64,000 nt of DNA from an uncultured Candidatus Sumerlaeota bacterium (GTDB lineage Bacteria > CAYMEV01): the NCBI GenBank assembly GCA_964389675.1, contig CAYMEV010000001.1:156539-220538 (forward strand), in the 5' to 3' direction. The position numbers and the translations under genes are program-made. This document shows positions 18,232 to 64,000 of the stretch, in pieces. Below the pieces are notes generated by a model. The model saw only the letters and a program-made list of their open reading frames with translations, made no database searches and was not told the origin of the DNA. The number at the start of each line of letters is the position of its first letter. Within the stretch, counting starts at the first letter, position 1.

Positions 18232-20925
18232 TTATTGTTTTATTATTTTACACGCTGCTACTTTGAATTCAGGTATTTTTGCAACAGGGTCCAGAGCATC
18301 ATTGGTAAGCATATTTGCCGGTGCTTCACAGAAATGGAATGGAATAAAGACCAGTCCTTTGGATACCTTTTCAGATATCACGACCCTGGTCCTGATCTGA
18401 CCCCTCCTTGATTTAACAACTGCCATCTCTCCATCTTCAATGCCAAGCTGTCTGGCGTCCTCTGAGTTTACCTCGACATAACCCTCGTCTGCAAAGAAAT
18501 TCAGCACATCGCTCTTCCTGCTCATGGTCCCTGTATGGTATTGGACCAGAATCCTGCCTGTGGAGAGTATCAGCGGATACTCATCATCAGGTACCTCAGC
18601 CGGCGGCTTGAACTCTATAGCAGAAAACAGTCCTTTTCCGCGGGTAAAACTGCCGTTCTTATGCAGGAATTGCGTCCCGGGATGATCTGCATCCTTGCAG
18701 GGCCACTGGAGGCCCTGATCCACACGTTCAGGCGTAATCCCTGCATAGTGAGGCGCAAGTGAATTGATCTCCCTCAGGATATCCCAGACATTTTCATACT
18801 TCATTTTATAACCCATTTTGTCTGATACATCCCTGATTATCATCCAGTCTTCCCTGAGGTTCTTATCTGGTTTAAGCACAGGCCTTATTACCTGAACCCG
18901 CCTCTCTGTACTTGTAAAAGTACCGTATTTTTCAAGGGAAGCCTTTGCAGGCAATACTACATCAGCTAAAGAGGCCGTTTCTGTGAGAAAGATATCCTGG
19001 ACTACGAGAAATTCAAGATTTTTTAGGGATTCTTCGACATGATTCAGATTGGGATCGGATATCATAGGATTTTCTCCCATTATGTAAAGGCCTTTCAGCT
19101 CCCCCTCGCCTGCTTTATTCATCATCTCCACAACTGTCAGGCCGACCTTGTTATCAAGACTGACTCCCCATGCATCTTCGAATTTTTTCTGATTGTTAGG
19201 GTCAGTTACAGCCTGATAGCTGGGATATACATTGGGCAGGGCACCCATATCACATGCTCCCTGGACATTATTCTGTCCCCGGAGCGGGTTGACCCCTGAA
19301 GCGTGCTTACCGATCTGGCCGGCTATCATGGCAAGGTTTGCAAGCGAAAGGACATTGTCCGTCCCTGTAGTATGCTGAGTAATACCCATGGAAAATACAA
19401 TGGAGGCAGCCTTTGCCTTTGCATATGCCCTTGCAGCATAGACTATCTTTTCTTCCGGTACATTTGTTATTTCTGAAACTCTTTCCGGTGTGTATTTTTC
19501 TATGACCTTTATAAGCTCGTCAAAGTTCTCGGTAAATTTTTCGACGAATTCCCTGTTATAAAGGCCTTCCTTAAAAATAACATGCATAATGCCATTTATG
19601 AGAGCAACATCTGTGCCATTCTTCTGCTGAAGATGAACTTTGGCATAACGCGTAATATCAATCTTCCTTGGATCAGCAACTATCAGTACTGCACCCTTTT
19701 TTACCGCATTTTTGATATATGTGGAGATTACAGGATGAGTTTCGGTTGTATTTGAGCCTATTATGAATATGCAGTCTGAGTCTGCCATTCCGGCATTTGT
19801 GTTGGTCATAGCCCCTGAGCCAAAGGCCTTTGCAAGCCCGGCAACAGTGGATGCATGACATAGCCTTGCACAATGGTCTACATTGTTTGTTCCGAATACA
19901 GCCCTTATAAATTTCTGGAATATATAATTCTCTTCATTTGTACACCTTGCTGAAGACAGGCCTGCTATCCTTGCCGGCCCATATTTCTGCTTCATTTCCC
20001 TGAACTTATTGGCAACCAGGGTTAAAGCCTCATCCCAGGAAGCTTGCCTGAATTTGCCGTTTTCCTTGATAAGGGGCGTTTTAAGCCGGCCTTCATTATG
20101 GATATAATCATGCCCGAACCTTCCCTTTACGCATAGCCTGCCATCATTGGCCGGTGCATCGACTCCCTCGACCCTGACTATTTCATTATCTTTAGTAAAG
20201 ATATTCATCTGGCATCCGACTCCGCAGTATTCGCAGGTAGTCAAAACACTGGACAACTCCCAGTTTCTTCCCTTTCCGATAGCCTGCTTCGGAAGCAATG
20301 CCCCGACAGGGCATGCCTGGACACATTCACCGCAGGCATCACACTCGGAATCAGCCCAATTCCCGTTTGCACCTGCCCATACAACCTCTTTATTACCGCG
20401 ATAAGCCATGTCAATTACTGTTTTAACCTGGATTTCATCGCATGCTTTAATGCACCTGTAACAGAGAATACATTTTTGAGGGTCGTATATAAAGCCGGGA
20501 GAAGAGTCTTCTACTGCCATGCCTGTATCATAGATGTTTGGATATGCTTCAGAGTTAATATCGATCTGGTACCTGTAAGCAAGCTTTTCCAGTTCACAGT
20601 TGCCGCTTTTATCACAGACCATGCAGTCGTGCTTATGATCTGCAAGAATAAGGTTTAATATATCTTTCCTGTATTGCTCGATCTCTTCGGTAAACAACTC
20701 TATCTCAAGGCCTTTTGTTACATAGGCTGTACATGATGTCTCAAATTTAGCAGTACCCTTCTTTTTGAAAATACAAAGGCGGCATGATCCGGTTGGGCTG
20801 ATTTTTTCATAATAACAGAGGCCCGGCACATCATAACCGACCCTGCGTAACTCAGCAAGAAGGTTCTCGCCTTCTTCTAACCAGACTTCCTTTCCGTCAA
20901 CTTTTACATTTACAAGATTTGACAT
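18232..20925 (-). CDS. fdhA: NAD-dependent formate dehydrogenase catalytic (alpha) subunit, molybdopterin, Cys-type, with NuoG-like N-terminal Fe-S domains
   Basis: 897 aa. N-terminal 2Fe-2S (CYYEKISPTGSCRLC) and 4Fe-4S motifs, then a molybdopterin oxidoreductase core. The active-site region VDHCARLCHAST carries Cys rather than an in-frame TGA. Confidence 0.85.
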   Translation of the reverse strand: MSNLVNVKVDGKEVWLEEGENLLAELRRVGYDVPGLCYYEKISPTGSCRLCIFKKKGTAKFETSCTAYVTKGLEIELFTEEIEQYRKDILNLILADHKHDCMVCDKSGNCELEKLAYRYQIDINSEAYPNIYDTGMAVEDSSPGFIYDPQKCILCYRCIKACDEIQVKTVIDMAYRGNKEVVWAGANGNWADSECDACGECVQACPVGALLPKQAIGKGRNWELSSVLTTCEYCGVGCQMNIFTKDNEIVRVEGVDAPANDGRLCVKGRFGHDYIHNEGRLKTPLIKENGKFRQASWDEALTLVANKFREMKQKYGPARIAGLSSARCTNEENYIFQKFIRAVFGTNNVDHCARLCHASTVAGLAKAFGSGAMTNTNAGMADSDCIFIIGSNTTETHPVISTYIKNAVKKGAVLIVADPRKIDITRYAKVHLQQKNGTDVALINGIMHVIFKEGLYNREFVEKFTENFDELIKVIEKYTPERVSEITNVPEEKIVYAARAYAKAKAASIVFSMGITQHTTGTDNVLSLANLAMIAGQIGKHASGVNPLRGQNNVQGACDMGALPNVYPSYQAVTDPNNQKKFEDAWGVSLDNKVGLTVVEMMNKAGEGELKGLYIMGENPMISDPNLNHVEESLKNLEFLVVQDIFLTETASLADVVLPAKASLEKYGTFTSTERRVQVIRPVLKPDKNLREDWMIIRDVSDKMGYKMKYENVWDILREINSLAPHYAGITPERVDQGLQWPCKDADHPGTQFLHKNGSFTRGKGLFSAIEFKPPAEVPDDEYPLILSTGRILVQYHTGTMSRKSDVLNFFADEGYVEVNSEDARQLGIEDGEMAVVKSRRGQIRTRVVISEKVSKGLVFIPFHFCEAPANMLTNDALDPVAKIPEFKVAACKIIKQ

Positions 20926-20935
20926 TTTATTTCTC

Positions 20936-22669
20936 CTAAATATTTAGTTCTTCTGGAAATTTATCCAGCAGTGATGAAATAGGCAAAATGGCAGACTGAC
21001 CCAGTGCGCAGAGTGAGGTTTCTTTCATTGTTCGGGCTGCCTGAAGAATAATATCCCATTCATTTCCTTTAAGGTTTTTCTTTTTTTCTATATTATTCAA
21101 AAGTTTCAGGATAGTAGCATTGCCGGCCCTGCAGGGGATACATTTCCCGCAGGACTCATGGAGGAAGAACTCAACCTGATTTTTAAGGACATCAAACAGG
21201 GAATCATCCTCATCCATTACCATAATTGCCCCTGAACCCAGAACCGCACCATTTGCAAGAAGATTTTCATAATCCATTTTTACATCCAGCATCTTTTCAT
21301 TTACAAAAGCTCCCGCTGCTCCTCCCAGGAGGGCTGCCTTAAACCTTTTGCCATCCTTTATGCCTCCTCCGAAATCATATATGAGGGTCTTTAATGTTGT
21401 TCCCATAGGTACTTCAACAATGCCAGGGTTTTTAACCTTTCCGCTTAGGACAAAGATCTTGGTTCCGGGTGATTTTTCCGTTCCAAAGCTCTTAAACCAG
21501 CCGGCTCCTTTTTTGATAATGGAAGGTATATTCGCCAGGGTTTCCACATTATTTACAATTGTCGGGACCTGCCATATACCCTTTTGCCCCGGGAATGGTG
21601 GTTTTACCCTTGAATTGCCGCGATGACCCTCGAGGGACTCTATCAAAGCCGTTTCTTCTCCAACTACATATGATCCTGCACCAATACTTACATCTATGCT
21701 GAAATTGAAACCGCTGTTCATAATGGATTTTCCAAGAAATCCTTTCGATTCTGCCTGTTCTATGGCTTTTTTAATCCTTTCTATAGATCTGTAATATTCA
21801 CCGCGAATATAGATATGCCCCTTAACTGCACCTATTGCATAACCTGCAATTGCCATCCCTTCAATAACCTTGTGAGGGTCGCCCTCCATCAGAGGCCTGT
21901 CCTTGAATGTGCCGGGTTCGCCTTCATCCGCATTGCAGAGCACGAACTTCTCTCCCTTCAGGGGGGCAGTGAAGCTCCATTTCAGCCCGGCAGGGAAACC
22001 TGCTCCTCCCCTGCCCCTTAGGCAGGAGTTCTTAACCTCTTCTATTACTGCTGAAGGGTCCATGCTAAGTGCCTTCCTTAACCCTTCATAGCCGCCACTT
22101 CGGATATAATCATCTATGCTTTCAGGATCTATCTCTCCAAAATTATCGAGAAGAATCCTGGTCTGCCTGTCAACTTGCAGCATAGTATCACTCTGGTCAG
22201 ACTCATTTACATATCGTTCATTTCGCCTCAGGTCTTCAAGGATCCTGTGAATTTTCTCTGCTGTAAGGTTTCCATAGATGCTTCTATTGATCATCATTGC
22301 AGGCGCCATTCCGCAAACACCCAGGCAGGCTGTCTTTTCCAGGGTGAAAAGCCTGTCCGGTGTTGTTTCTCCAGCTGATACCCCGAGAGATTTCTCAAGT
22401 ACATCAACCAGGTTATCACTGCCCATTATATGGCAGGAGACAGATTCACAAACCCTTATTAGATACTTTCCCCTGGGTTTCAGGGAAAACATGGTATAAA
22501 AGCTTATGACACCATAGATCTTTACAATGGGAATATTCAGAAATCTGTGTATTTCATAAATATCATCATCGCAAAGGTAATGTTCCGGATGATTGTCCTG
22601 AACATCATGCAGAATAGGTATAAGATTTTCCTCTGAAGGTGTATATTTTTTAAGGATTTCCTTTATCAT
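20936..22669 (-). CDS. NAD(H)-binding diaphorase subunit (NuoE-NuoF fusion; FDH beta subunit)
   Basis: 577 aa. N-terminal NuoE-like 2Fe-2S (CESVSCHIMG..CLGVCGMAP), NuoF FMN/NADH core (GRGGAGFPAGLKW), C-terminal 4Fe-4S ESCGKCIPCR. Confidence 0.8.
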   Translation of the reverse strand: MIKEILKKYTPSEENLIPILHDVQDNHPEHYLCDDDIYEIHRFLNIPIVKIYGVISFYTMFSLKPRGKYLIRVCESVSCHIMGSDNLVDVLEKSLGVSAGETTPDRLFTLEKTACLGVCGMAPAMMINRSIYGNLTAEKIHRILEDLRRNERYVNESDQSDTMLQVDRQTRILLDNFGEIDPESIDDYIRSGGYEGLRKALSMDPSAVIEEVKNSCLRGRGGAGFPAGLKWSFTAPLKGEKFVLCNADEGEPGTFKDRPLMEGDPHKVIEGMAIAGYAIGAVKGHIYIRGEYYRSIERIKKAIEQAESKGFLGKSIMNSGFNFSIDVSIGAGSYVVGEETALIESLEGHRGNSRVKPPFPGQKGIWQVPTIVNNVETLANIPSIIKKGAGWFKSFGTEKSPGTKIFVLSGKVKNPGIVEVPMGTTLKTLIYDFGGGIKDGKRFKAALLGGAAGAFVNEKMLDVKMDYENLLANGAVLGSGAIMVMDEDDSLFDVLKNQVEFFLHESCGKCIPCRAGNATILKLLNNIEKKKNLKGNEWDIILQAARTMKETSLCALGQSAILPISSLLDKFPEELNI

Positions 22670-49790: not shown

Positions 49791-50676
49791 TATTATAATC
49801 ATAGGGTGCGGCCCGGCCGGTATGTCCGCAGCATTACAGCTGAAAAGATACGGATATTCCTTTGAGGTCTTTGAAAAAAGCCAGATAGGCGGGCTGGTAA
49901 AGAATGCAAACCTGATCGAGAACTACCCGGGTTTTCCTCACGGGATAAGGGGAACAGAGCTCATACAGCTTTTTGCTGAACAATGCAGGATTAACGATAT
50001 CAAGCCGGTCTATGAAAAAGTGACAGACCTTGATTACCTCGATGACCTGTTCTATATAAAGACCAAACAGAACTATTTCAGGTCAGCATACGCAGTAATT
50101 GCAACAGGAACAGAGCCAAGGAAGCTTAATCTGCCTAATACTGAAAATATGAATGGCAGGAATATCTTTTATGACATTTATGAGATCATGCAGGTTAAAG
50201 ACAAGAATATAGCAATAATAGGATCAGGGGATATTGCATTTGATTATGCACTGAACCTTTCGGATAATAATACGGTTACAGTCTTCAACAGGAGCCAGGC
50301 TCCGAAATGTATCCCGATACTCTGGGAACGGGCAAAGAAAAAGGAAAACCTGATCTACCTGAACAGATCCAACCTTATTAATATATTCCCAACGGAATCT
50401 GACAGAATAAAGCTGGAGTATTACTCCAATGATGAACATGCAGTAAAGGAGGGCTTTTTCGATTATGTAATACCTGCAATCGGAAGACAGCCGGCAAATA
50501 ATTTCATATCGGAAAGGATATATAAAAATCAGAACATGCTTATTAAGAACGGAAGGCTCTTCTTTATTGGAGACTTCAATAATGACATATGCAGGCAGGT
50601 AGCTATATCAGCGGGAGACGGAATAAAGACGGCCATGCTGTTAAAAAGCAGGATTGAGAGCACAAAAAGGGACTGA
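49783..50676 (+). CDS. FAD/NAD(P)-binding oxidoreductase (TrxR-like fold, no CxxC)
   Basis: IIIIGCGPAGMSAALQ dinucleotide motif and a second Rossmann IAIIGSGDIAFDYA. No redox-active CxxC seen. 8-bp overlap with the upstream gene. Confidence 0.65.
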   Translation: MIDIIIIGCGPAGMSAALQLKRYGYSFEVFEKSQIGGLVKNANLIENYPGFPHGIRGTELIQLFAEQCRINDIKPVYEKVTDLDYLDDLFYIKTKQNYFRSAYAVIATGTEPRKLNLPNTENMNGRNIFYDIYEIMQVKDKNIAIIGSGDIAFDYALNLSDNNTVTVFNRSQAPKCIPILWERAKKKENLIYLNRSNLINIFPTESDRIKLEYYSNDEHAVKEGFFDYVIPAIGRQPANNFISERIYKNQNMLIKNGRLFFIGDFNNDICRQVAISAGDGIKTAMLLKSRIESTKRD

Positions 50677-51629
50677 TGAGGGTAATAAAGAAGACACATA
50701 GATCCAGTATAGCCTCGGTATATATTGCCAGGACAGCTGACGGCCATCTGGTTGAGTTCGTGGAAAGCATTCAGCCTCCTCTCTCCAGGAGAGAAAAGTG
50801 GGTCATAATACTCTCTTCGCTGGTAGGATGCCCTGCAAAATGCAAATTCTGCGAAGCCGGCGGCAATTTTAAGCGAATCCTCAGCAAGGACGAGCTGTTT
50901 TTCCAGATCAGATACCTTCTGGATCTATACGGATTTGCAGGTTCAGTCCCTTCAGCCAAGTTCAAGATTCAGTTTGCCAGGATAGGGGAGCCCTCATTCA
51001 ATAATAATGTACTTATGCTCCTGGAAGACCTGCCTTCAGCAATAGATTCTCCCGGGCTTCTCCCATGCATCTCCACTATTGCTCCTCAATCCAGAGGGGC
51101 TTTCTTTGAAATGCTTCTGGAGATAAAGAACAGGCTTTATAAAAAGGCCTTTCAGCTTCAGTTCTCTGTCCACTCAACTGACAGAAACTTCAGGGATTAC
51201 CTTCTCCCTTTGCCTAAATGGCCTCTGGAACAGATTGCTGACTATGGCAGAAGGTTTTATAATAAGGACAACAGAAAGATCACACTGAATTTCGCCCCAT
51301 CTGTTAATACACCTGTCTGTCCGGAAATTATTAAAAAGCACTTTGATCCTGACATTTTTCTTCTGAAATTCACTCCGATAAATCCCACATCTGAAGCAAA
51401 AAGGAATCGCCTGAAATCACTTATAAACCCCCGGGGAAAAAAATACGACATAATAGAAAAGCTGAGGACAGCAGGTTTTGATGTAATATTAAGCCTGGGT
51501 GAGTATGAAGAGAACAGGATAGGAAGCAATTGCGGGCAGTATATTACAAATTTCAATAAAGCATCAAGGCAGGTTGATGATGCCTATACATACCCGCTTG
51601 AGAATGTATCGTCAGAAACAAAGGTTTGA
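50676..51629 (+). CDS. RlmN/Cfr-like radical SAM enzyme, short form; appears to lack the Cys118-equivalent resolving cysteine
   Basis: ILSSLVGCPAKCKFC (cf. RlmN CVSSQVGCALECKFC); ARIGEP (MGMGEP); ISTIAPQS (LSTSG); SVHSTDRNFRDYLLPLPKWP ([20 protein letters not shown]); C-terminal GSNCGQYIT (cf. AACGQLAG, the methyl-carrying Cys355). Start codon shares 1 bp with the upstream stop (TGATG). Confidence 0.6.
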   Translation: MRVIKKTHRSSIASVYIARTADGHLVEFVESIQPPLSRREKWVIILSSLVGCPAKCKFCEAGGNFKRILSKDELFFQIRYLLDLYGFAGSVPSAKFKIQFARIGEPSFNNNVLMLLEDLPSAIDSPGLLPCISTIAPQSRGAFFEMLLEIKNRLYKKAFQLQFSVHSTDRNFRDYLLPLPKWPLEQIADYGRRFYNKDNRKITLNFAPSVNTPVCPEIIKKHFDPDIFLLKFTPINPTSEAKRNRLKSLINPRGKKYDIIEKLRTAGFDVILSLGEYEENRIGSNCGQYITNFNKASRQVDDAYTYPLENVSSETKV

Positions 51630-53300: not shown

Positions 53301-55490
53301 ATGAAACTTTTCAGGAAAAACATGAATTTGCCGGTTGTCTTAGGCCTTCTAATCCTCATTTCAGCGCTTTTTACACCCCGGCTAATTTCTGAAGAACGTC
53401 AGGTGGTCTTTAACGATGGCCTTGCACAGCAGAGCATTGCCTGGCAGATAGAGGAGCTGGCAAAATGGCTTATTAAATCGAGAGACCTGATTCCGAGGCC
53501 TGAAGAATGTACGGAATACTGCTTTACAATAGATACACTCAATATATCAGGGTCTATAGAGAAGAACAGACTGCTTTTCAGTCTGAACGGCCATGTCCTG
53601 TCTGATGATTATGCACTGATACCGCTTTTCAGCCAGCCCAAAAAGATTGGCCTTTTAAATGTAACGGTAAATAACAAGCCTGCTATAGTAGGTTTTGAGG
53701 ACCTTAACCACTATTTCGTAAGAACAGCCGAAAAGGATTTTGTTATAAAGGGCGAGCTTGAGTTCCGCGAGGAATCCAATCTCAATATCGTGGGCCCTGT
53801 TAATTCTTTCTACGGGGAGATTGAAGACGGCAGAATAGTACAGGGCAATAAGCTCGCAGGATTAAGAAACACACTTATACACATTGAATCTACAAAAGCC
53901 AGGCCTGTTTCGGATGAACCTGAAATAAAGCCTTTGTTCCAGCTTAACAGATCTTTCAGGATCACAGATGAAATTGCATTTGAATATCATGTATATATCC
54001 GGTCAGGGACAGAGATAAGCAATTATATCATACCTCTTAAAAACAGCGAGATAGTGCTTGATGTCAGGGGCGTAAGGGATTGGAAGCTTGAAAAGGACAG
54101 GCTCATTATCAATTCAAACCAGAAAAGCATTCAATGCATAATAACAGGTAATATCAAGAGCCTTGAAGCCTTAAGCATGGATGAAAGGTCCGGTTATGAA
54201 TGGTGGCTTATTGAATCTGACCCCCAGCACAGGATCTCCGTTAAGACCACAGGAAAGCAGATAGATTCATCTGAATCCCCGATACCGAGAAAAATGTCAT
54301 TATCCAGGCTTTATTTCATGACAAAGGGCAATGAGATCAGCATAAGCGTTCAAAAGCTGAAATCCCTTGAAGCACTTGCAGCTGTTGTACATTCCCAGAA
54401 AAGAAAAATAGTCTGGACAAAGGATGGAGACATAGTAGCCTATGACACTTTGACATATGAGAACAGCGGGGTTGACTACCTTGTTTTTGATACAAAGGGA
54501 AAGCCCATATATCTCGAAATTGACAATTCTCCCCAGAGGCTCCTGTCTCAGGATGACATCCCTGAAACCGCCGTCCTGCTTCCACTGCTGAAGGGTAAAC
54601 ACAATGTCTTTATTCAGAACATAGCCAAATCAGAGATAAATCATCTTGGCGGATCTCTTGAGCTTCCATCACCTGAACACAGCTTTACAATAAGCAACGG
54701 CTATATTGAATTTGGCCTCCCCGATATGATCATACCGCTTTATTTTACTGAAGGTACAGGCTTTCTGAATCCATTCAGCCTTACAGACATAATACTTTTC
54801 ATTATAATAATCATAATATCATTTTACCTGTTTAAAAGCAGGAGCATAAGATTCTTTTCAGTAATCTCGCTTGCTGGAATATACCTGCTGTTGAAGGGGT
54901 TTTTTATTGCCCTGCTTATACTGGCGATATTAATAAAGCTGGTATTCTACCTGAGGAAAAAATACTCAAAGAAGACCTTCCTCCTTATTATAATAATAAC
55001 AGCCATGGCACTCATCTCACTGCTTGTCTACTCGATGATCCTGCCATCACTGCTGATTTCAGGCCGCTCTCATGCCGGTTATGATCAATCCAGGCAAAGG
55101 CCGGAAGCTCCATCTATGCAGGCTTATGATGAATATGAACAGAAAACACTGAGCAAAAGCGAAGAAAGATGGGGGCAAAGAGATGCCGGAAGCATTGATT
55201 ATGATAAACTGCTTAGGGAAGATGCTGTCATTTCAGACTCAAGCATAGTAGAGGGAATAATACCGGTCGCTTTGCCTATGCCTAAATATGATTACAGCCT
55301 CTATGCATACAAAGAACTTATAACGAAGGACAGGCCTCTTGCACCAAGGCTGCTTTATATAACAAGATATACGCTTATACCTGTTTATCTCCTATGGCTG
55401 ATATCGCTTCTGATTTTAATAAGGCATCTGTATCCTGAGATCAGGCCTTATTTAAAAAGGGATGAGATAAAAAAGCAGGAACCTGAGTAG
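53301..55490 (+). CDS. Large hypothetical envelope protein: signal peptide, about 480-aa extracytoplasmic domain, 3-4 TM, cytoplasmic tail, terminal TM
   Basis: 729 aa. AAGGAGAG RBS. Signal peptide LPVVLGLLILISALFTP. TMs ILFIIIIIISFYLF, VISLAGIYLLL, LLIIIITAMALISLLVY, IPVYLLWLISLLILI. No recognisable catalytic motif. Confidence 0.5.
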   Translation: MKLFRKNMNLPVVLGLLILISALFTPRLISEERQVVFNDGLAQQSIAWQIEELAKWLIKSRDLIPRPEECTEYCFTIDTLNISGSIEKNRLLFSLNGHVLSDDYALIPLFSQPKKIGLLNVTVNNKPAIVGFEDLNHYFVRTAEKDFVIKGELEFREESNLNIVGPVNSFYGEIEDGRIVQGNKLAGLRNTLIHIESTKARPVSDEPEIKPLFQLNRSFRITDEIAFEYHVYIRSGTEISNYIIPLKNSEIVLDVRGVRDWKLEKDRLIINSNQKSIQCIITGNIKSLEALSMDERSGYEWWLIESDPQHRISVKTTGKQIDSSESPIPRKMSLSRLYFMTKGNEISISVQKLKSLEALAAVVHSQKRKIVWTKDGDIVAYDTLTYENSGVDYLVFDTKGKPIYLEIDNSPQRLLSQDDIPETAVLLPLLKGKHNVFIQNIAKSEINHLGGSLELPSPEHSFTISNGYIEFGLPDMIIPLYFTEGTGFLNPFSLTDIILFIIIIIISFYLFKSRSIRFFSVISLAGIYLLLKGFFIALLILAILIKLVFYLRKKYSKKTFLLIIIITAMALISLLVYSMILPSLLISGRSHAGYDQSRQRPEAPSMQAYDEYEQKTLSKSEERWGQRDAGSIDYDKLLREDAVISDSSIVEGIIPVALPMPKYDYSLYAYKELITKDRPLAPRLLYITRYTLIPVYLLWLISLLILIRHLYPEIRPYLKRDEIKKQEPE

Positions 55491-55762: not shown

Positions 55763-57271
55763 TCAGAATGGAAAATCATCCAGTTTCTTCTTCTGTGAAC
55801 CTCTCGGGCGTATATATGCCTTTTCATGAATATCAAGAGGCTTTACTGCTATTGCCTTCGTGCCCTCAACGGGGCATGAATACTGGCATATTCCGCATCC
55901 AATACAGTGTTTTGTGCTTACCACCGGTGCAAGGACCTTCCCAAGGTCTATCATCTTTATCGCTGCGGTAGGACAGTGTTCTGCGCATGCACCACAGTCC
56001 AGGCCCAGGCTGTAGGGTATGCAGAGGCCGGTGTCCAGTCTGGCCTTCCCTATTGCTGTTACCTGCTTTTCAGGAAGGCTCAGGTATTTCAGTGCATTCA
56101 TGGGGCATACACTCATGCAGACATTGCATTCAAAGCTGCAGTAGGATTTATTAAAATCAAGGGCGGGAAGCAGCCTGTTTGAACTGCTGTGAGAATAGCT
56201 GACTGGCTTTAATACCCCCGTAGGGCATACAGAAATACATAAACCGCAGTTTGTGCACCTGGATAAGAAGCTTTCATAGGTGTCACCGCCGGGCGGGAAG
56301 ACCTCGGCAATATCGGTGTTTTTGCTTTCAGCTCCTGCCAGGCTTTTGAGCAAAAACCCTCCGGACAACCCAAGTCCTGCAAACAGGGCTGATCTAAGCA
56401 ATCCTCTCTTTTCCTTTGAATAACTTGCTTTTTCATCCTGACGGCCCTTGCCAGCCTTAAATGAAAGTCTCAGTGAATTAACAGGGCACTGCCTGAGGCA
56501 TTCAAAGCACATAATGCACTGTGTTTTATCAACATAGCCATCTTCGATACACATAACAGGGCACTTTCTGTCGCATTTACCGCAGGTTCTGCATGAATCT
56601 TCCTGCCTTATGCTCAGCAGGGAATGTCTGGCAAGAAAGGAGAACAGAAGGCCTGACGGACAAATACTGTTGCAGAATAGCCTCGGGAAAAAGAGCGACG
56701 AAATAAATACAGAGAGAATAAAGAAAATGGAATAGAAAAAAGACCTGTGGAGATCAAATGGAATCTCACGAAAATATATGGACGAATACTCATAGACCGC
56801 GCCTGATAATGGACTTACGGCCATGCTTATAAGGGGATTTACCGCATGAGCAAGGAATGATACCATATTTGTAAAGTGGTCGACAAGGAAATAAAGAGGA
56901 AGCCTGACAAAAACAAGCACGAGGAAAAGAAAGAGCAAAAAGGTCTTAAATGATGCCATTCCCGGGACTTTTCTCTTTTTTATGCCGAGTTTGTCAGAAA
57001 CTGCTATTGAAATATCCTGAATCAGGCCTACAGGGCATAAAAATGAGCAGTACAGCCTTCCAAATATAAGGTTGACCAGAATAAGAAGGAGAAATACAAG
57101 CATATAGGTGCTTATGCTTAGATCCGCCAGTTTTGACAGAGAAGGCACAACATGCAGATAATTAAATACGCTTATCAGCCCTATGCTCTCAATAAGGTTA
57201 AGTGTCACTAAAATTGCGAAGGCCAGGAATATAGCCTGGGACAGTCTTCTTATTAATCTTATGTATCTCAA
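55763..57271 (-). CDS. Membrane-bound polyferredoxin (NapH/MauN/CcoG-like 4Fe-4S protein)
   Basis: 502 aa. TM helices carrying LYCSFLCPVG; multiple CxxCxxCxxxCP ferredoxin motifs (CTNCGLCISVCPTG, CNVCMSVCPMN, CGACAEHCPT, CIGCGICQYSCPVEG). Confidence 0.7.
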   Translation of the reverse strand: MRYIRLIRRLSQAIFLAFAILVTLNLIESIGLISVFNYLHVVPSLSKLADLSISTYMLVFLLLILVNLIFGRLYCSFLCPVGLIQDISIAVSDKLGIKKRKVPGMASFKTFLLFLFLVLVFVRLPLYFLVDHFTNMVSFLAHAVNPLISMAVSPLSGAVYEYSSIYFREIPFDLHRSFFYSIFFILSVFISSLFFPRLFCNSICPSGLLFSFLARHSLLSIRQEDSCRTCGKCDRKCPVMCIEDGYVDKTQCIMCFECLRQCPVNSLRLSFKAGKGRQDEKASYSKEKRGLLRSALFAGLGLSGGFLLKSLAGAESKNTDIAEVFPPGGDTYESFLSRCTNCGLCISVCPTGVLKPVSYSHSSSNRLLPALDFNKSYCSFECNVCMSVCPMNALKYLSLPEKQVTAIGKARLDTGLCIPYSLGLDCGACAEHCPTAAIKMIDLGKVLAPVVSTKHCIGCGICQYSCPVEGTKAIAVKPLDIHEKAYIRPRGSQKKKLDDFPF

Positions 57272-57275
57272 GCCC

Positions 57276-58187
57276 TTATATTGATATCCTCCTGATATTT
57301 ATATTGTCAAGTACGGTGGTCCCTATCATATGGCTTTCTGCCATTTTTATATGGTCGATATCCGACGGCTCCATGCCCATTATGGCAGCACATGCTGTAT
57401 CTACGGCAACCATGTCCGTACCTGCTATCAGCATTCTGTCATTCCTTAGATCATCTTCTGACAATCCCCTGGGGCCATTGTGGATCATGACATTATATGC
57501 ATCGATGATATTCAAATCCGGCTTCCTTACCAGGGGAATCTCTGAAATACATTGATGCAGGCCATTCCTGTGAAAGAACCTTCTGTCATAGACAACTCCC
57601 ATCATATTCTTTAATGCAGCTGTCATTCTCGTAGAACCGTGGCTTTTCAGCTTTGCAAGATTAATAAAAACGTCAGCCTCAAGGTATAATTTATTAAAAA
57701 GTGCTTCCTTCAGTATCTTTGCAGCAGGTATTTTTACATTGCTGTAATCCTTCTTGTCATAAGCAGGAAGCATTATCCCAGAGCTGTCTTTCACAGCCCG
57801 TTCCACACCGCTGTTCCTGTAGCTTCCTGACCATTCATTGCACGTATTGTCAAAGGCATATACAGTCTTTGCACCAGCCTTATATGCCATCTCAACAACC
57901 TTTGCCACCAGCTCCGGGCTTACATTTGCCCCCTGTGAAGGAGTCCTGTTCCATGATGTATTAGGTTTTACAGCTACTATCTGCCCCTTACTGATAAACC
58001 TTGAGAACCCCCCCATTGCATCTATTGCTATCTCGAACATCTGCGCAGGTGTTCCGTTTCTCACCGCGACCATGTCGGGAAAGGAGCTTTTTGACTCTTC
58101 ACCCAGCAGGGGCAGGCTGGGAAAAAGCGTCAGTATGCCCGCAGCAGCTCCCATTTTTATAAAATCACGCCTGTTGTATGAAACCAT
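57276..58187 (-). CDS. Tat-exported DUF362-domain protein
   Basis: Twin-arginine signal MVSYNRRDFIKMGAAAGILTLFP. DUF362 core VAVKPNTSWNRTPSQGANVSPELVAKVVEMAYKAGAKTVYAFDNT. 4 bp from the polyferredoxin gene. Confidence 0.6.
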   Translation of the reverse strand: MVSYNRRDFIKMGAAAGILTLFPSLPLLGEESKSSFPDMVAVRNGTPAQMFEIAIDAMGGFSRFISKGQIVAVKPNTSWNRTPSQGANVSPELVAKVVEMAYKAGAKTVYAFDNTCNEWSGSYRNSGVERAVKDSSGIMLPAYDKKDYSNVKIPAAKILKEALFNKLYLEADVFINLAKLKSHGSTRMTAALKNMMGVVYDRRFFHRNGLHQCISEIPLVRKPDLNIIDAYNVMIHNGPRGLSEDDLRNDRMLIAGTDMVAVDTACAAIMGMEPSDIDHIKMAESHMIGTTVLDNINIRRISI

Positions 58188-58265: not shown

Positions 58266-59861
58266 TCAGATAAACATGACCCTCTCATTCACCTCCACTG
58301 CGATTGCTTCCTGATTCAGCTTCCTTTTGAGATTGTCGATATAATCAAGCACATCATATAAGTGGAGGTCCATCAGGTCATCCTTCATAAAGCTTTTAAT
58401 AATATAAACCCTTTCAACAATAATGTTCTGACCGCTTTTATAGGTTCCATCAGCCTCTAATACTGTGACTCCTCCGAATAGGCATGTCATGTACTTTTTC
58501 AGCTGATCCCGTATTTCAGAAGTATCAAATGACTCATCCCTGTTTATTGTAGTAGGGATGTAAATGCAGATACAGCAGTCCTTATCCATAAAAGACATGA
58601 ATCTCAAAAGGTCCTTTTCCCTTATTTCTTCATTCTGACTGATAATAATATCATACCGGTCATCATCCTCTTCTTTACCGGTATTATCTTCTGGCTCCAG
58701 AATCTTAAAGACCATTCCTGTTTTTGCCTTGTGGGTATTTCTGCGAAGGATCTTTTCAACATCTGTCAGCGAAGGCTTTTTGCCATCCAGGATCACGCAC
58801 AGTTTATCTGCTTTTGAAAAATCCATATTCTCGAGCCTGTCCTTATCAACGGTATGTTGAATGCAAATAAGGCTGTATCTGGAGATGACATCCTGGTAAA
58901 GATATTCATCCCTGAAAAAATCTTCCCCTTTTTTGTATTTAATATCAAAGAACTCACTGAACCTCTCACCTTCTTTTCCCTCTGCATTAGTTCCGCAGGT
59001 TTTTTCCCTTTCCGGGTCATTTATGATAAAGCAGATCTTTTTTTCTGTCATCTCTGAGTATTTTGAAAGGATCTTGAATTCTGCATCCTTTCCATCAGAA
59101 TTAAATCTCAAAAAGACAATGATCTTTGCCTTTTTCTCACCTGAGATAACCAGCTTTCTGCTCTCATCAATTGCAGAACTGAGCATACAATCCGCAAAGG
59201 CGGGATGCCGGCTGATAAGCTCCCTTATATAATCCACGGGTATCTCGAATATCTCAAGCCTGCTGTATGCAATTACACTGTAAGGCATGGTACTGTCATA
59301 ACAGGAGAGTGCATATCCTCCAATAAGATCGCCTTTGTGGAAATACTGCACTATCCTGTTTTTTTCCAGCTCAGGCTTGATTATGCAGGCAGCTGAAATT
59401 CCGTTCTTGATCAGGCATAGGTTCTCAGGGGTATCCTCCTGCCATAATAATATCTCATTCAGCCTGTATATCCGTTTTTTGGAAATATCTATTGTCTTTG
59501 AGATATTTTCCGTGCTGAGGCCCCTGAAAAGCCTGTTTTTTTTGAAAAAGTCATAATCACTGATCTCATAGGATTCCCACAGGCTTGGAGGAAGGAATGC
59601 CTTATGCGTTCTCAGATTATCAGCAAGATTTGCACAGTAGCTTATGCGTCTGTCCTGAAGGATCTGCTTTATCATTCCTTTTTTCAGCATTTCCCTGATA
59701 TATTTTCCAGGCTCATCCTCTTTGATGCCAAGTGCATTTATGATACCAGGGATTGAGGATCCCGGGTTCTTTACAAGAAAGGTCATTATCTTTCTATAGC
59801 ATGCAGGCATCAGCAGAATATCCGAAAGTGTGACGCCGCTTTTGAAATCTTTCTCACTCAT
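58266..59861 (-). CDS. Multidomain regulator: N-terminal winged HTH, cNMP-binding (CAP effector) domain, about 300-aa uncharacterised C-terminal region
   Basis: 531 aa. wHTH (YRKIMTFLVKNPGSSIPGIINALGI). cNMP-binding fold FRGLSTENISKTIDISKKRIYRLNEILLWQEDTPENLCLIKNGISAACII.. with glycine-rich loop residues. The C-terminal half has no recognisable motif. Confidence 0.55.
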   Translation of the reverse strand: MSEKDFKSGVTLSDILLMPACYRKIMTFLVKNPGSSIPGIINALGIKEDEPGKYIREMLKKGMIKQILQDRRISYCANLADNLRTHKAFLPPSLWESYEISDYDFFKKNRLFRGLSTENISKTIDISKKRIYRLNEILLWQEDTPENLCLIKNGISAACIIKPELEKNRIVQYFHKGDLIGGYALSCYDSTMPYSVIAYSRLEIFEIPVDYIRELISRHPAFADCMLSSAIDESRKLVISGEKKAKIIVFLRFNSDGKDAEFKILSKYSEMTEKKICFIINDPEREKTCGTNAEGKEGERFSEFFDIKYKKGEDFFRDEYLYQDVISRYSLICIQHTVDKDRLENMDFSKADKLCVILDGKKPSLTDVEKILRRNTHKAKTGMVFKILEPEDNTGKEEDDDRYDIIISQNEEIREKDLLRFMSFMDKDCCICIYIPTTINRDESFDTSEIRDQLKKYMTCLFGGVTVLEADGTYKSGQNIIVERVYIIKSFMKDDLMDLHLYDVLDYIDNLKRKLNQEAIAVEVNERVMFI

Positions 59862-61023
59862 TTTTTTCCCCCCTGCTGAGTTTCAGGTCTTTTGCAATGG
59901 ATTTCAGCTTTTTGAAGTAATCTGACTGGATGATCCTATCCACCTGTTCGCTTTGTTCTTTCTTATCAATCTTCAGCTTCAGAATATCGACCTGTGTTTT
60001 AAGCCTTTCCTCCCTGTTGTCCACCTCTTTTACCATATTATTGAATACACTGATAAGCCTGCCTATTTCATCCGCACTGCCTGTGCCTATCGATGGCTCA
60101 ATATATTCATATTTGCCCTTTTCAACTGCTACGGCAGCCTTTGTAAGAGCCTTCAGCGGACTGACCAGCCTTTTTGAGAGGTATATTGATGCTGTAAGGC
60201 CAAGCATCAGAATTATAAAAATGATTGTTCCTGCATCGTACAGCATGACGACCTCATCCCTTTCTTTCTTCTCCTGGTCTTCTGATCCATATTTATCAAA
60301 TAAGGGGCCGGATGATGTCTCTTGAGTATATTGTGCATTGTGAGAACCTCTGTAGTAACCGCTTAATACGAGAAATCCGCAAACCTGGCTGATTATAAGT
60401 ATAAGTGATATCACAAGTATGAACCTTGTCTCAATATTTAGGACTATCCTTTTCATTAAAAGAAGTATGACAGGAAGCACAATAATACCTGCAATTATAT
60501 TGGTCATTGCTGCCGGAAGGAACCAGAAACTGTATGCATCACTCAGCGAAAGCCTGTTTATCAGGTACACATCTGCAATAAAAGAAGAAAAGCCTATTCC
60601 GATAATATTGCCTGTTATAATCAGCATTATCAGGATCCCCATATCATATGCCGATTTTATCCGGCTGATCCTGAAATACCTGTAGAAGCCCATTACAAGG
60701 CCTATAATCCCATTCCCTGCATGCCACTGCACAAAGGTCAAAGCTCCATACCCGATAAGATAATCACCGGCCATATTTCCCAGAAAGCCCGCTAAAAACC
60801 CGGCTAAAGGCCCAAAGATCAGGCCTGTCAGCATAACTATCACGATCTGCAGCCTGAAACTTGCAAATGTTATTCCGGGAAGGATGGTATCCTGGAGAAG
60901 GTAATTGAAAAGGCCATACAAGAAAGCACCGGCAATGGCACCTGCAACAGCTCTGATCATCCTCCGGCCTTTTCTCTCAGGCATCCGGAAAACACCTGAA
61001 AGCATTTTTCTGATCTTCTTCAT
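59854..61023 (-). CDS. Membrane protein: ECF-transporter S-component-like 6-TM domain fused to TM-loop-TM-HAMP-coiled coil
   Basis: 389 aa. Gly-rich TM core LTGLIFGPLAGFLAGFLGNMAGDYLIGYGAL.. reminiscent of ECF S components. HAMP LVSPLKALTKAAVAVEKGKYEYIEPSIGTGSADEIGRLISVFNNMV (P..G..DEIG.L...FN.M). No output domain. 8-bp overlap with the downstream gene. Confidence 0.5.
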   Translation of the reverse strand: MKKIRKMLSGVFRMPERKGRRMIRAVAGAIAGAFLYGLFNYLLQDTILPGITFASFRLQIVIVMLTGLIFGPLAGFLAGFLGNMAGDYLIGYGALTFVQWHAGNGIIGLVMGFYRYFRISRIKSAYDMGILIMLIITGNIIGIGFSSFIADVYLINRLSLSDAYSFWFLPAAMTNIIAGIIVLPVILLLMKRIVLNIETRFILVISLILIISQVCGFLVLSGYYRGSHNAQYTQETSSGPLFDKYGSEDQEKKERDEVVMLYDAGTIIFIILMLGLTASIYLSKRLVSPLKALTKAAVAVEKGKYEYIEPSIGTGSADEIGRLISVFNNMVKEVDNREERLKTQVDILKLKIDKKEQSEQVDRIIQSDYFKKLKSIAKDLKLSRGEKNE

Positions 61024-61032
61024 GGGATTATG

Positions 61033-61785
61033 CTATTCAATCTCTTCTGCTATCTTTTTGAATATGCCTGTAAGCTCATGGTCAGGATAATCCAGTGAGA
61101 ATACCCCGCTGCTTCCGTATATCATAAGTTCATCTGAATGGGGTACGATAAGCACTTCTTTGCATTCATAATCATCGCTGATCCTGGCTTTCAGCATCTC
61201 CCCGCTCAGAGACCCCGGAACCTTATTGGCTATAATAAGAATATCCCTGATCTCAAGCTGCCTTGCAACCTCAAGAAGCACGCCGGTCCCTGCATAATCC
61301 TGCTGGTCAGGCCTCAGTACCACAACAAGTTTATCCGAAAGAGCAATACTGAGAAGGGTTTCCTCATTCAGCCCGGGATGAGTATCAATGATCAGGTGGT
61401 CGAGCCTGAGTTCTTTTATTATATCATTCAGGCCATTGTTCAAGAGATTAATATCATATCCCCTGCTTAATATATATGCAATATCCCCTGCATCAATACT
61501 GGATGGTACGAGGTAGATCCCTCCTTCTGAACTGCTTTTAAGCTTTGGTTTCAGATCGACCGCTGTTTCCGCTATTCTGCATTTACCCAGGAGGTAATCG
61601 TTCAACGATCTCCTGCAGGCTTCCCTGTCCAGTGAAAAAAGTATATGTATGCCCGGTGACTGTATATCAGTGTCTATGATACCGACTCTCTTTCCAGAAA
61701 GATAGATGTTTACAGCAATATTTGCCGTAATATTAGATTTCCCGGTACCTCCCCTGAATGAATGGACAGCGGTAATCCTGCTCAT
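61033..61785 (-). CDS. MinD/ParA-superfamily P-loop ATPase with Arg in place of the Walker A signature Lys
   Basis: 250 aa. Walker A FRGGTGKSN (cf. KGGVGKT), Walker A' IIDTDIQSP, Walker B LIIDTHPG. Confidence 0.65.
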   Translation of the reverse strand: MSRITAVHSFRGGTGKSNITANIAVNIYLSGKRVGIIDTDIQSPGIHILFSLDREACRRSLNDYLLGKCRIAETAVDLKPKLKSSSEGGIYLVPSSIDAGDIAYILSRGYDINLLNNGLNDIIKELRLDHLIIDTHPGLNEETLLSIALSDKLVVVLRPDQQDYAGTGVLLEVARQLEIRDILIIANKVPGSLSGEMLKARISDDYECKEVLIVPHSDELMIYGSSGVFSLDYPDHELTGIFKKIAEEIE

Positions 61786-62045
61786 ATTAAAGATCCTCCC
61801 GGACTATATCCTTAAGCAAAATTGCAGACAGCATATTATGAAATATTATAGTATTTTTCTCCATCTTTCCAGTTATATTTTTATGAGCCTGATTTTTAGA
61901 GCATGAAATTAAGATTTCAAGCATTATTTCCATGCCCGTTTTAAAAGGGAGGCTTTTTGGGAATCCGGCAATGATAATTTACTGTCAGATCGATCCTGAT
62001 TATGCTATAATATTTAAACATAAATAACTGTTCTGAAAGACTCTC

Positions 62046-64000
62046 ATGAAAATGAAGAACCTGGTCCCATATTTCATATTAAAGCAGTACGAAGCAAAAA
62101 GGCATAAAGGGTGTTTTTATGCCTATACCCTGAACCTTGATATATCAGGATTTACAAAACTTACCGAAATGCTTATGAAACACGGAAAAAGTGGTTCTGA
62201 AACTCTTACAGAAGCCTTAAATGAAATTTTTGAGCCTATAATTGAACAGATCTACATAAATGGAGGCTTTATCACTTCATTTGCCGGAGACGGTTTTAAT
62301 GCGATATTACCTGTTGAAGCCAGGAAACCCGATAAAATCACTGCTTTAAGATTAATGCATATACTTTCATTTATAAAGGCCCATTTCCAGACAAAGAAGA
62401 ATATCAGGACCCCTTATGGCAATTTTAGAATGGATTTCAAGGCCTTTGCCACATTTGGCAGGGTAGGCTGGATGATAATCAAAGCAGTATCAAGATATTC
62501 CTATCTTTTCAACGGAAAACCCATTGAAAAATGCTCTGAATTCAGGATGAACATTCGCAAGGGTGACATCATCGCTGATAAAAGCATCATCGGGTCAATA
62601 GAAGGCAAAAAGAGAAAGATTAGGAATAAAGAGCTTTACAGGCTAAAAACAGACAAATTTCATGCTGCAGGTCCATCTCCCTGCAATAATAATGAAACTG
62701 ACAGGCTTCTTTACAGGCATATGGCAAAATTCCTGCCGTCCTCTGTCTTAAATTTCAGGGGAATTGCGGAGTTCAGGGATATCGTATCAGTATTCATCCT
62801 GTTCAGCCACAGGATACCTGAAAATAATATGAAAAAGCTCATCAGAATGCTTATTGACAGCTCTGATGAATTCGGAGGCTATCTGAACAAGGCCGATATA
62901 GGGGATAAGGGAGGAACAGCCCTTGTACTGTTCGGTGCACCGGTTTCCTATGAAAACAATATTGAAAGAGCTTTATCCTTTATACTTTCCATTAAAAGCA
63001 GGGTAACTGCCCCTGCGCTTAGAACAGGCATATCCTTCGGCCCTGTATATTCCGGTATCATAGGGAGCCATATCAGATGCGAATATACTGCAATTGGAGA
63101 TATAGTCAACCTTTCAGCCAGGCTTGCGGGCAGAGCAAAAAAGTGTGAATCATGGTGCAGCCCGGAGGTTTACAGGCATATGCAAAGATCCTTCAGTTTC
63201 AATTTCCTTGATAGACTGAAATTCAGGGGCAAGTCCGGAAAAATACCGGTTTACATGCTGAAAGGGAAAAAAAAGATCGATGAGCTCCCTGTTTTCAGCG
63301 GGAAAATTGCAGGCAGGGCCAGGGAGATCAAAATGACAGTTGATATCCTCAGCAAAAGCCTGAGGTCCGGTGAAAGCCATATCGCATACATATCAGGGGA
63401 CCCAGGAATAGGAAAATCCAGGCTGGTGGCGGAGGTGAAAAAGGAAATATACAAAGGGTTTAAGGGCCGGATCAGCTGGTTTATTTTTACATGCGAGGAG
63501 ATCCTGAGGAAGCCCTTTAACTGTGCTTTGCATTTTCTGAAAAAAAGGTTCGGGGCTTTTGATGAAGTATCGGCAGCCGAGGCAGTAGAAAGCTTCAGAT
63601 TCAGGTATAATAAGCTCATCAGGGATATCACGGGTATCAATGATGAAATATCAGATGAGCTTAAAAGGACAGAATCGATCATTGCAGGCTATATCGGAAT
63701 AGGTTTTGAGCAGTCACTTTATGAAAAACTGGATGCCAGGCAAAGATATGAGAACTTCATATATGCCCTGAAAAACCTTATTAAGGCTGAAAGCCTAATT
63801 AATCCTGTAGTTATAGAAATCGAGGATACGCAATGGATGGATGCAGACTCTTTAAATTTTTTCAGCGTCCTCACGACAAACCTGTCGGGATTCCCTGTAT
63901 CAATAATTTCCCATGCAAGATACCGTGATGATGGGACCGAGTTCAGGCTGGACGCTGATGAAATACCTGAAACATCAATAAGGCTGGGTGCCCTTGGAAA
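62046..64000 (+). CDS. Large signalling protein (5' partial in window): two tandem class III cyclase (CHD) domains followed by a STAND/AAA-type NTPase; continues past the window end
   Basis: Open frame from ATG 62046 to the window edge with no stop (checked codon by codon). CHD-1 YTLNLDISGFTKL..SFAGDGFNAILP looks degenerate. CHD-2 FSHRIPENN..ADIGDKGGTALVLFGAP..CEYTAIGDIVNLSARLAGRA looks canonical. P-loop ISGDPGIGKSRLVAEV. Not in the ORF track because it lacks a stop codon. Confidence 0.7.
   Translation, partial: MKMKNLVPYFILKQYEAKRHKGCFYAYTLNLDISGFTKLTEMLMKHGKSGSETLTEALNEIFEPIIEQIYINGGFITSFAGDGFNAILPVEARKPDKITALRLMHILSFIKAHFQTKKNIRTPYGNFRMDFKAFATFGRVGWMIIKAVSRYSYLFNGKPIEKCSEFRMNIRKGDIIADKSIIGSIEGKKRKIRNKELYRLKTDKFHAAGPSPCNNNETDRLLYRHMAKFLPSSVLNFRGIAEFRDIVSVFILFSHRIPENNMKKLIRMLIDSSDEFGGYLNKADIGDKGGTALVLFGAPVSYENNIERALSFILSIKSRVTAPALRTGISFGPVYSGIIGSHIRCEYTAIGDIVNLSARLAGRAKKCESWCSPEVYRHMQRSFSFNFLDRLKFRGKSGKIPVYMLKGKKKIDELPVFSGKIAGRAREIKMTVDILSKSLRSGESHIAYISGDPGIGKSRLVAEVKKEIYKGFKGRISWFIFTCEEILRKPFNCALHFLKKRFGAFDEVSAAEAVESFRFRYNKLIRDITGINDEISDELKRTESIIAGYIGIGFEQSLYEKLDARQRYENFIYALKNLIKAESLINPVVIEIEDTQWMDADSLNFFSVLTTNLSGFPVSIISHARYRDDGTEFRLDADEIPETSIRLGALG

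Follow-up and report, generated by a model that had tools for sequence, protein, structure and literature searches.

MinD/ParA ATPases commonly position cargo, which in the described systems (MinD with MinE or MinC, ParA with ParB) is DNA, the divisome or chemoreceptor arrays; ParC-ParP and PpfA-TlpT are ATPase/adaptor pairs for chemoreceptor arrays. Lyases of S-adenosylmethionine (SAM) have so far been small phage counter-defence enzymes, plus one CRISPR-associated family of SAM-AMP lyases. In Streptomyces conservons, a HAMP-type membrane sensor (CvnA) occurs with a protein bearing the winged helix-turn-helix (wHTH)-like DUF742 (CvnC) and a P-loop GTPase (CvnD). Here we describe an operon of three minus-strand genes from an uncultured Candidatus Sumerlaeota bacterium, lying within a 64,000-nucleotide (nt) stretch of contig CAYMEV010000001.1 (below, the window), which encodes a MinD-type ATPase, a membrane sensor and an effector protein that ends in a SAM-lyase-like domain. 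With confidence and doubt in about equal measure, we read the operon from its sequence as one instance of a widespread system of three modules, in which a sensor would act through a MinD-type ATPase on a regulated SAM lyase. This reading rests on homologies, residue conservation and gene linkage, from which we infer enzyme activity, substrate, protein contacts and the direction of signalling.

Every fold in the operon (MinD, HAMP, CAP and SAM lyase) is known, and the combination is a variant of a MinD/ParA-plus-adaptor system together with an enzyme of the SAM lyase family; that it amounts to a categorically new signalling system is plausible. Like the ATPases of the MinD-MinE/MinC and ParA-ParB systems, the operon ATPase is encoded with dedicated small partners, to which HAMP sensors are added here, but its gene context is of a signalling or enzymatic kind (SAM lyase, SpoIIE, transporters). 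The likeness to conservons is one of similar logic, in that a HAMP sensor in the membrane, a small wHTH protein and a P-loop NTPase switch share a gene cluster, though the NTPase of the operon is MinD/SIMIBI rather than Ras-like and there is neither a Roadblock protein nor a histidine-kinase-like ATPase domain. In open-access papers and preprints we found no description of a sensor-fused SAM lyase, of the tail motif, ATPase subfamily or architecture described below, and nothing pertinent on DUF3574, which agrees with a first-pass annotation of the locus that had recognised no described system in it.

The operon and its linked modules

The three genes, which the first-pass annotation had grouped as an operon, encode proteins of 250, 389 and 531 amino acids (aa). 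Gene 1 (61033..61785, minus strand as are all features of the operon) was identified as a MinD-type P-loop ATPase by Pfam, by profile comparison with the PDB and by a leave-one-out hidden Markov model (HMM); gene 2 (59854..61023) as a membrane sensor by Pfam, hydropathy and full-length homologues; and gene 3 (58266..59861) as the effector by alignment, an AlphaFold2 (AF2) model and an architecture census. Genes 2 and 3 overlap by 8 nt (59854-59861), as had been reported, and the spacer between genes 1 and 2 measures 9 nt (61024-61032) instead of the 10 bp given earlier. Each of the three proteins is a singleton at 90% identity clustering, and homologue searches seeded with words from the 531-aa protein, the 389-aa protein or the family alignment recovered nothing but the query itself or unrelated proteins binding cyclic nucleotide monophosphates (cNMP), so the source lineage is poorly sampled.

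To follow the modules elsewhere, we gathered 80 loci of the effector family, of which 26 have a long form of the protein with the wHTH module and 54 a short form lacking it; gene calling in the collected loci was crude, so that the linkage counts are lower bounds. Homologues of the ATPase (45-56% identity) are encoded directly upstream of the effector gene in 11 of the 26 long-form loci. An ATPase gene lies within 4 kb in 11 of 26 long-form and 1 of 54 short-form loci (Fisher's exact p = 7e-6), and a protein with the sensor's tail within the same distance in 13 of 26 and 0 of 54, respectively. Of the metagenome loci centred on the ATPase, 21 extend for 2 kb or more to either side, and in 16 of these a tail protein, a wHTH protein or both are encoded no farther than 2.5 kb away. 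The ATPase, lyase, tail and wHTH modules each stood up to leave-one-out testing. The grouping seen in the window is therefore not confined to it: the co-occurrence check in the 80 loci, together with three loci (L148, L152 and L158) considered below, shows co-conservation of the three families, both in metagenomes and in genomes of Chloroflexota.

The 250-aa protein matches Pfam AAA_31, ParA and CbiA, and the closest structures to its family profile in the PDB are archaeal-type MinD proteins, the best being MinD-1 (1HYQ, 7e-21). Its deviant Walker A motif, S-F-R-G-G-T-G-K-S (aa 9-17; 61735..61761), has Arg11 in place of the MinD signature Lys and retains the P-loop Lys16, so that the earlier call of a MinD/ParA fold with Arg for Lys in FRGGTGKS stands. 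Among the hallmarks of MinD/ParA proteins, the P-loop GK[ST], the aspartates of Switch I/II and Walker B and homology to MinD structures are present, and the signature Lys of KGGxxGK[ST] is absent. Residues R11, G12-G15, K16 and S17 are invariant in all 12 aligned subfamily members, DTD (aa 38-40) and IDTH (D134) are invariant within the subfamily as well, and the subfamily motifs read HSFRGGTGKSN, DTDIQSPGIH and IDTHPGLNEETLLS. With 45-56% identity to homologues from Chloroflexota and metagenomes, a leave-one-out HMM score of 318 bits and at least 589 metagenome relatives, the operon ATPase belongs, judged by its motifs, to a distinct subfamily of MinD-type ATPases. Gene context suggests that it is a signalling switch or adaptor and not a positioning factor. 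The likeness to BcsQ drawn earlier holds for the shared Arg but not for membership, as TIGR03371 scores 36.1 bits against a cutoff of 157.85 and no bcs genes are found among the neighbours. Septum-site MinD was also rejected (TIGR01968 45.7 bits against 212.9; minD_arch 74.9 against 201.75; adjacent genes not minC or minE), as was the NCBIfam AAA_KGGVGR variant (NF047398), for which the protein scores 71.8 bits and its relatives 70.7-82.3 bits against a curated cutoff of 90.

The 389-aa sensor begins with a membrane bundle resembling the S-component of energy-coupling factor (ECF) transporters (aa ~24-214; 60382..60954), its presumed ligand-sensing input, where Pfam places ECF-ribofla_trS (PF07155) at aa 49-191 (5.9e-15, 56.1 bits against a gathering score of 26.7). 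In the hydropathy profile a bundle of several transmembrane (TM) segments is followed by TM 202-220, a 37-aa loop and TM 258-276, after which comes a HAMP domain (PF00672; aa 282-333; 60025..60180; 3.9e-7, 30.7 bits against a cutoff of 25); the S-component-like bundle and the TM-loop-TM-HAMP layout had both been seen in the first pass. Known S-component equivalogs score below their cutoffs (RibU 39.9 bits against 99, the folate S-component 19.6 against 60), and the bundle is fused to HAMP and neighboured by genes for the ATPase and effector, not for EcfA or EcfT. By score and context it is thus S-component-like, not an identified transporter subunit.

What follows the HAMP domain had been taken for a coiled coil with no output domain. 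This proved wrong, for the segment is not a generic coiled coil but a conserved C-terminal tail module (aa ~335-387; 59863..60021), delineated by leave-one-out HMM (E 2.7e-27) and a locus census, and reading REERLKTQVDILKLKIDKKEQSEQVDRIIQSDYFKKLKSIAKDLK in the window. The family consensus is RExxLKxQVxxLRIEIDExKKxRQVAEITETDYFxxLxxxAxxLR, for which no Pfam or NCBIfam model was found, and the tail was seen in 41 proteins, encoded at 39 loci. Of the 38 carriers in metagenome loci, 28 are encoded at most 300 bp from a MinD-like gene, and the inputs to which the tail is attached vary (TM-HAMP, cNMP+HAMP, HisKA+REC, dCache+GAF, and the ECF-S-like bundle). In L148 and L152 (E 7e-66), and likewise in L158, the gene next downstream of that for the ATPase encodes a full-length ECF-S/HAMP homologue. 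An initial label of "TM-HAMP-GAF" for the Chloroflexota partners was dropped, since Pfam gives GAF or dCache only and the tail is the part they have in common with the window sensor. One HisKA+REC protein with the tail at its end is found near a MinD-like ATPase at L105:2543-3772. In Chloroflexota operons, a Cys-rich protein of 72-82 aa (CRFCGRF…WCGEC, probably zinc-binding, no Pfam or NCBIfam match) lies between the tail-sensor gene and a standalone wHTH gene (L003:12868-13116, L004:3964-4182, L009:12919-13140 and L016:5729-5947).

The 531-aa effector can be aligned over its full length with 25 relatives of like architecture, at 16-23% identity. At its N-terminus is the system-specific winged-helix module (aa 7-94; 59580..59843; HMM, hhalign and AF2), with wHTH topology at aa 12-77 in the AF2 model of the whole protein (mean predicted local distance difference test score, pLDDT, 75). 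The module is homologous to small standalone proteins (~111-170 aa) encoded beside the same ATPase, as given by a leave-one-out HMM (E 2e-10), by hhalign (99.2%) and by a model made independently from 22 of the standalone proteins (E 1.9e-8); no Pfam or NCBIfam model was found for it. It also occurs fused to a major facilitator superfamily (MFS) transporter of 565 aa (L092:9186-10883, minus strand) and embedded in ~976-aa proteins without Pfam hits (L124:1518-4448, plus strand), which suggests further outputs of the ATPase system.

The middle of the effector, beyond the CAP fold considered below, is a degenerate α/β region (aa ~239-410; 58632..59147) at the position where family profiles place a pseudo-MinD/ParA domain. 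Matched to known structures, the family profile of this domain finds Soj, ParA and MinD (best 7.5e-7), and it matches the neighbouring ATPase family with an hhalign probability of 96-97%. By these matches the middle domain of the family is a homologue of ParA/MinD, and as nearly all members have lost the Lys of Walker A, and many the Asp of Walker B, it is a pseudo-ATPase. In the 531-aa protein neither Walker A (FLRFNSDGKD) nor Walker B (YSLICIQHT) is intact, and the AF2 model shows alternating β/α secondary structure here with pLDDT 60-75; a fold search with the full-length effector was dominated by CRP-type matches and was uninformative for this domain. The pseudo-MinD and lyase cassette is also seen after a region of metallo-β-lactamase fold that has two cNMP domains (P0032, 1167 aa) and after dCache sensor domains (P0015, P0044, P0050, P0054 and P0137, 755-824 aa).

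The SAM-lyase-like domain

The C-terminal 300 aa of the effector had been left unassigned in the first pass. Remote homology now assigns aa 422-531 (58269..58598) as a SAM-lyase-like domain of PII fold, by profile comparison with the PDB, AF2 and Foldseek, and aa ~239-410, less firmly, as the degenerate MinD-like region; the profile and fold matches are to a phage SAM lyase and not to a common metabolic enzyme domain. A phmmer search with aa 235-531 returned 365 matches, nearly all covering the last ~100 aa only, and the domain is a mobile one, which makes up ~115-aa proteins by itself and also forms the C-terminal end of cNMP-binding and dCache proteins. In the PDB, a profile of 30 members matched the phage SAM lyase Svi3-3 (6ZM9, E 0.0015). 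The AF2 model of aa 422-531 has pLDDT 92.5, and a Foldseek search with it placed Svi3-3 at ranks 1-2 (6ZM9 and 6ZNB; E 1e-4 and 4.5e-4; TM-score 0.68) and CutA/PII proteins at ranks 3-50. A leave-one-out HMM recovers the domain at E 9e-28.

The domain also has the residues expected of a lyase. Among SAM lyases only Gly56, Glu69 and Gln104 (Svi3-3 numbering) are strictly conserved, Tyr58 contacts the sulfonium through a cation-π interaction, Glu105 is important for activity, and mutants of E69 lose activity 1500-4500-fold (PMC7877911). The equivalent positions in the effector are G472 (Gly56, conserved in 227 of 230 domain sequences), Y474 (Tyr58, W/Y in 225), E483 (Glu69, all 230), Q517 (Gln104, all 230) and E518 (Glu105, E/D in 228), so that the 531-aa protein agrees with Svi3-3 at all five; Trp is usual in the family at the place of Tyr58. 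With phage SAM lyases (Svi3-3, 6ZM9; T3 SAMase) the domain has in common the PII-like ferredoxin-type fold and the conserved residue set, but those are small standalone counter-defence proteins and here it is the C-terminal part of a bacterial multidomain protein encoded within a chromosomal signalling operon.

Gene context adds to this. In two Chloroflexota loci (L018 and L020) a nucleosidase for 5'-methylthioadenosine (MTA) and S-adenosylhomocysteine (SAH) (NF004079, 196 bits against a cutoff of 169) is encoded between the tail-sensor gene and a second ATPase gene, and in two more (L022 and L024) such a gene directly follows the tail-bearing gene. As MTA is a product of SAM lyases, this supports the lyase reading independently.

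Standalone homologues of the domain are frequent in phages: they occur in 87 viral contigs and among the BFVD entries, where many are uncharacterised phage proteins, and PHROGs 31027 and 3543, both annotated as of "unknown function", contain them. Pfam DUF3574 is matched by 12 of the 30 lyase-domain relatives. Proteins of DUF3574 and of both PHROGs bear the G…(W/Y)…E…QE signature, and from their sequences DUF3574 (P0006 and other ~115-aa proteins; viral loci L162-L241) and the two PHROGs appear to belong to the SAM-lyase/PII-like superfamily, which gives all three a testable function.

The system we favour would work as follows. Its first module is a sensor ending in a tail of ~50 aa, represented here by the ECF-S-like bundle with HAMP; its second is the dedicated MinD-type ATPase with Arg for the signature Lys; and its third is a wHTH-bearing protein, represented here by a fusion to a CAP fold, a degenerate MinD-like region and a SAM-lyase-like domain. 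A ligand sensed by the membrane bundle would signal through HAMP to the tail, and both the tail and the wHTH module would engage the ATP-bound dimer of the ATPase, with which the degenerate MinD-like region may pair too. The ATPase may then be a nucleotide-dependent switch or scaffold that sets the assembly state of the effector, and with it effector activity, since a SAM lyase works only as a trimer, its active sites lying between subunits (PMC7877911). As its output the effector would cleave SAM into MTA and homoserine lactone, which could either shrink the methyl-donor pool or yield MTA. If so, signal-controlled degradation of SAM would regulate the bacterial SAM pool or MTA production, the lyase would be a new signalling output domain, and MinD/ParA ATPases would extend from positioning machines to signal transducers, their two partner modules (tail and wHTH) linking HAMP, GAF, Cache, cNMP and REC sensors to varied outputs.

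Several observations weigh against this picture. Identity of the domain to Svi3-3 is only ~12-13%, Pfam S-AdoMet_lyase (PF23780) does not match the window domain and matches 4 of 30 relatives weakly (best E 0.005), and T3-type SAMases rank low in a viral fold search (E ~0.06). The linkage to the MTA/SAH nucleosidase, MtnN, is limited to 4 loci, and control of a trimeric enzyme by a dimeric ATPase is conjecture. For the middle region, the leave-one-out model does not recover that of the 531-aa protein, whose only match to MinD-like proteins is a single-sequence collinear alignment (E 0.011); taken with the architecture position and the predicted β/α pattern, the pseudo-MinD call for this protein itself is weak. 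Finally, when the best 80 ATPase loci are considered, the lyase effector is found in just 1 (L097), and the trio of ATPase, tail and wHTH is therefore a general platform with the lyase as one of several outputs. Other genes seen near MinD-like ATPases encode a SpoIIE/PP2C phosphatase (L094:8839-9729) and a 1147-aa HEAT-repeat and cNMP-binding protein (L129:1343-4786).

The conserved residues are also substrate-binding ones, and a non-catalytic sensor of SAM or MTA would keep them too. The C-terminal domain could thus be a PII-like sensor, binding SAM, MTA or another adenine nucleotide at the cleft between subunits within a regulatory or positioning complex, an alternative that we think unlikely. 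It would fit the PII-like fold with its long run of CutA/PII matches, the sensor-type nature of the other effector domains, and the finding that in Svi3-3 the conserved residues are the binding residues, SAH occupying the place of ATP in PII (PMC7877911). What speaks for the lyase instead is that lyase structures are the best matches by both sequence and fold, that the set of G, aromatic, E, Q and E, including the catalytically critical Glu, is kept across 230 sequences, and that linkage to an MTA nucleosidase fits formation of the product.

A different substrate is a further possibility. The type III CRISPR SAM-AMP lyases are likewise trimeric, PII-superfamily, encoded by bacterial hosts and placed in a signalling context; they do not cleave SAM, and only the catalytic Glu and Gln, which the operon domain also has, are structurally conserved between the two enzyme types (PMC12255297). 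Were the effector to act on such a SAM-derived or related sulfonium compound, for example SAM-AMP, it would switch a signal off instead of draining a metabolite. We consider this improbable, as the best fold matches are Svi3-3 with no SAM-AMP lyase in the top 50, the aromatic equivalent of Svi3-3 Tyr58 is conserved, and the substrates of the linked MtnN are MTA and SAH. The operon is neighboured by genes for a DUF362 protein, a polyferredoxin and a cyclase-STAND protein, with no type III CRISPR or CorA genes next to it.

The CAP fold and the adjacent cyclase

Between the wHTH module and the middle region, the effector has a cyclic-nucleotide-binding fold of CAP/CRP type (aa ~104-223; 59193..59552), matched by Pfam cNMP_binding (PF00027; aa 130-219, 9.2e-10, 38.8 bits against a cutoff of 27.5) and by Foldseek, which returned CRP, PKG and CNG/CNB structures for the region. 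The winged helix and CAP-type domain described in the first pass are thus both recovered, by AF2 and Pfam. The protein is not, however, a CRP/FNR-type transcription factor, an assignment that was rejected because there is no C-terminal HTH, that part being the α/β region and the lyase-like domain; the winged helix of the effector is N-terminal and of a system-specific family, unlike the HTH of CRP/FNR.

The phosphate-binding cassette is non-canonical (GDLIGGYAL…MPYSVIA), with Glu replaced by Gly and Arg by Tyr. Among relatives, 51 of 54 short forms have the canonical G-E…R-[ST]-A cassette, including all 18 that lie beside a cyclase, but only 2 of 26 long forms do, the other 24 lacking it. The family accordingly appears to have two regulatory modes: judging from these cassettes and the linkage described above, the short forms are plausibly under cNMP control, and the long forms, the 531-aa protein included, appear to be coupled to the ATPase and tail sensor, keeping a CAP fold of uncertain ligand. 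Conservation of the lyase-bearing form spans Chloroflexota and Cytophagales, and a cyclase often accompanies it.

We put forward a wider proposal tentatively, as possible but short of probable, namely that this is an unrecognised and widespread bacterial system in which varied sensors with an "LRIEID…ETDYF" tail act through an Arg-signature MinD-type ATPase on wHTH proteins. It would include a host-encoded, regulated SAM lyase as a recurrent output, with signal-driven destruction of the methyl donor or production of MTA and homoserine lactone, and cAMP or cGMP as the signal in short-form relatives.

The window has a cyclase gene of its own. Divergent from the operon and starting 260 nt away, it runs off the window (62046..64000, plus strand), and Pfam finds in it a nucleotidyl cyclase domain of class III at aa 243-406 (Guanylate_cyc, 1.2e-9) together with a STAND-type ATPase (AAA_16, 6.2e-15). 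The earlier description of a tandem-cyclase/STAND gene at this distance holds for one cyclase, the STAND ATPase and the spacing, but not for a second cyclase, since the N-terminal 230 aa have no significant similarity to a cyclase domain (BLASTP E 3.4; hhalign probability 3.9%). Two strings in that N-terminal part (62046-62735, plus strand), LDISGFT and FAGDGF, recall cyclase metal-binding motifs. Whether the cyclase-STAND gene belongs to the operon's system is uncertain.

A cyclase beside a CAP fold recalls Pycsar anti-phage defence, in which case infection would trigger a cyclic nucleotide, sensed by the CAP domain, and the effector would deplete SAM and abort the infection. Metabolite depletion is a known defence logic, and short-form relatives, like Pycsar, pair an adjacent cyclase with a canonical cNMP domain fused to an effector: in 18 Bacteroidota loci, TPR-cyclases divergently adjoin short-form homologues with canonical pockets. 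The cyclase also has a weak match to PycC (24.8 bits), and the CAP domains of relatives resemble those of Pycsar effectors. For the operon itself, though, we rate a defence role as having little chance. The effector type (pseudo-MinD plus lyase) would be new, and the 531-aa protein lacks the cNMP-contacting Glu and Arg; PADLOC gave no match for effector or sensor and no defence-system assignment; and the genes around the operon are of housekeeping or redox type, none of the neighbours scanned being a mobile-element gene or another defence gene. Effector homologues are moreover conserved, with 35-49% identity, throughout entire classes of Chloroflexota and Cytophagales, which suggests a stable chromosomal gene.

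The first-pass model, in which the cyclase's cyclic nucleotide would bind the CAP domain and the MinD-like protein would be a positional ATPase, draws on the CAP fold, the adjacent cyclase and the usual role of such ATPases, but is very improbable, as gating by cNMP is doubtful with both phosphate-binding residues replaced in the 531-aa protein and in 24 of 26 long-form relatives, and as linkage to the ATPase follows the wHTH module, not an intact cNMP pocket.

Surrounding sequence

Both promoters presumably lie in the divergent intergenic region of 260 nt between the operon and the cyclase gene (61786..62045), where a promoter and terminator scan gave consensus-level sites only, with no enrichment over shuffled sequence. 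A search of the whole 64-kb window with Rfam gave no family at gathering score, and hence no RNA gene and no riboswitch, SAM riboswitches included.

Downstream of the operon by 78 nt, and on the same strand (55763-58187, minus), are genes for a DUF362 protein with a twin-arginine translocation (TAT) signal and a NapH/NapG-like membrane polyferredoxin. We did not count them as members of the system, as they are absent as recurring neighbours in related loci. Farther away on the plus strand are a 729-aa protein with a hydrophobic N-terminus (a possible signal or TM segment) and a multi-TM C-terminal part (53301-55490) and a 317-aa protein (50676-51629), neither with a Pfam match. On the minus strand (18232-22669), a molybdopterin oxidoreductase of 897 aa, which resembles formate dehydrogenase and has NuoG-type Fe-S domains, adjoins a fused NuoE/NuoF-like flavoprotein (577 aa).

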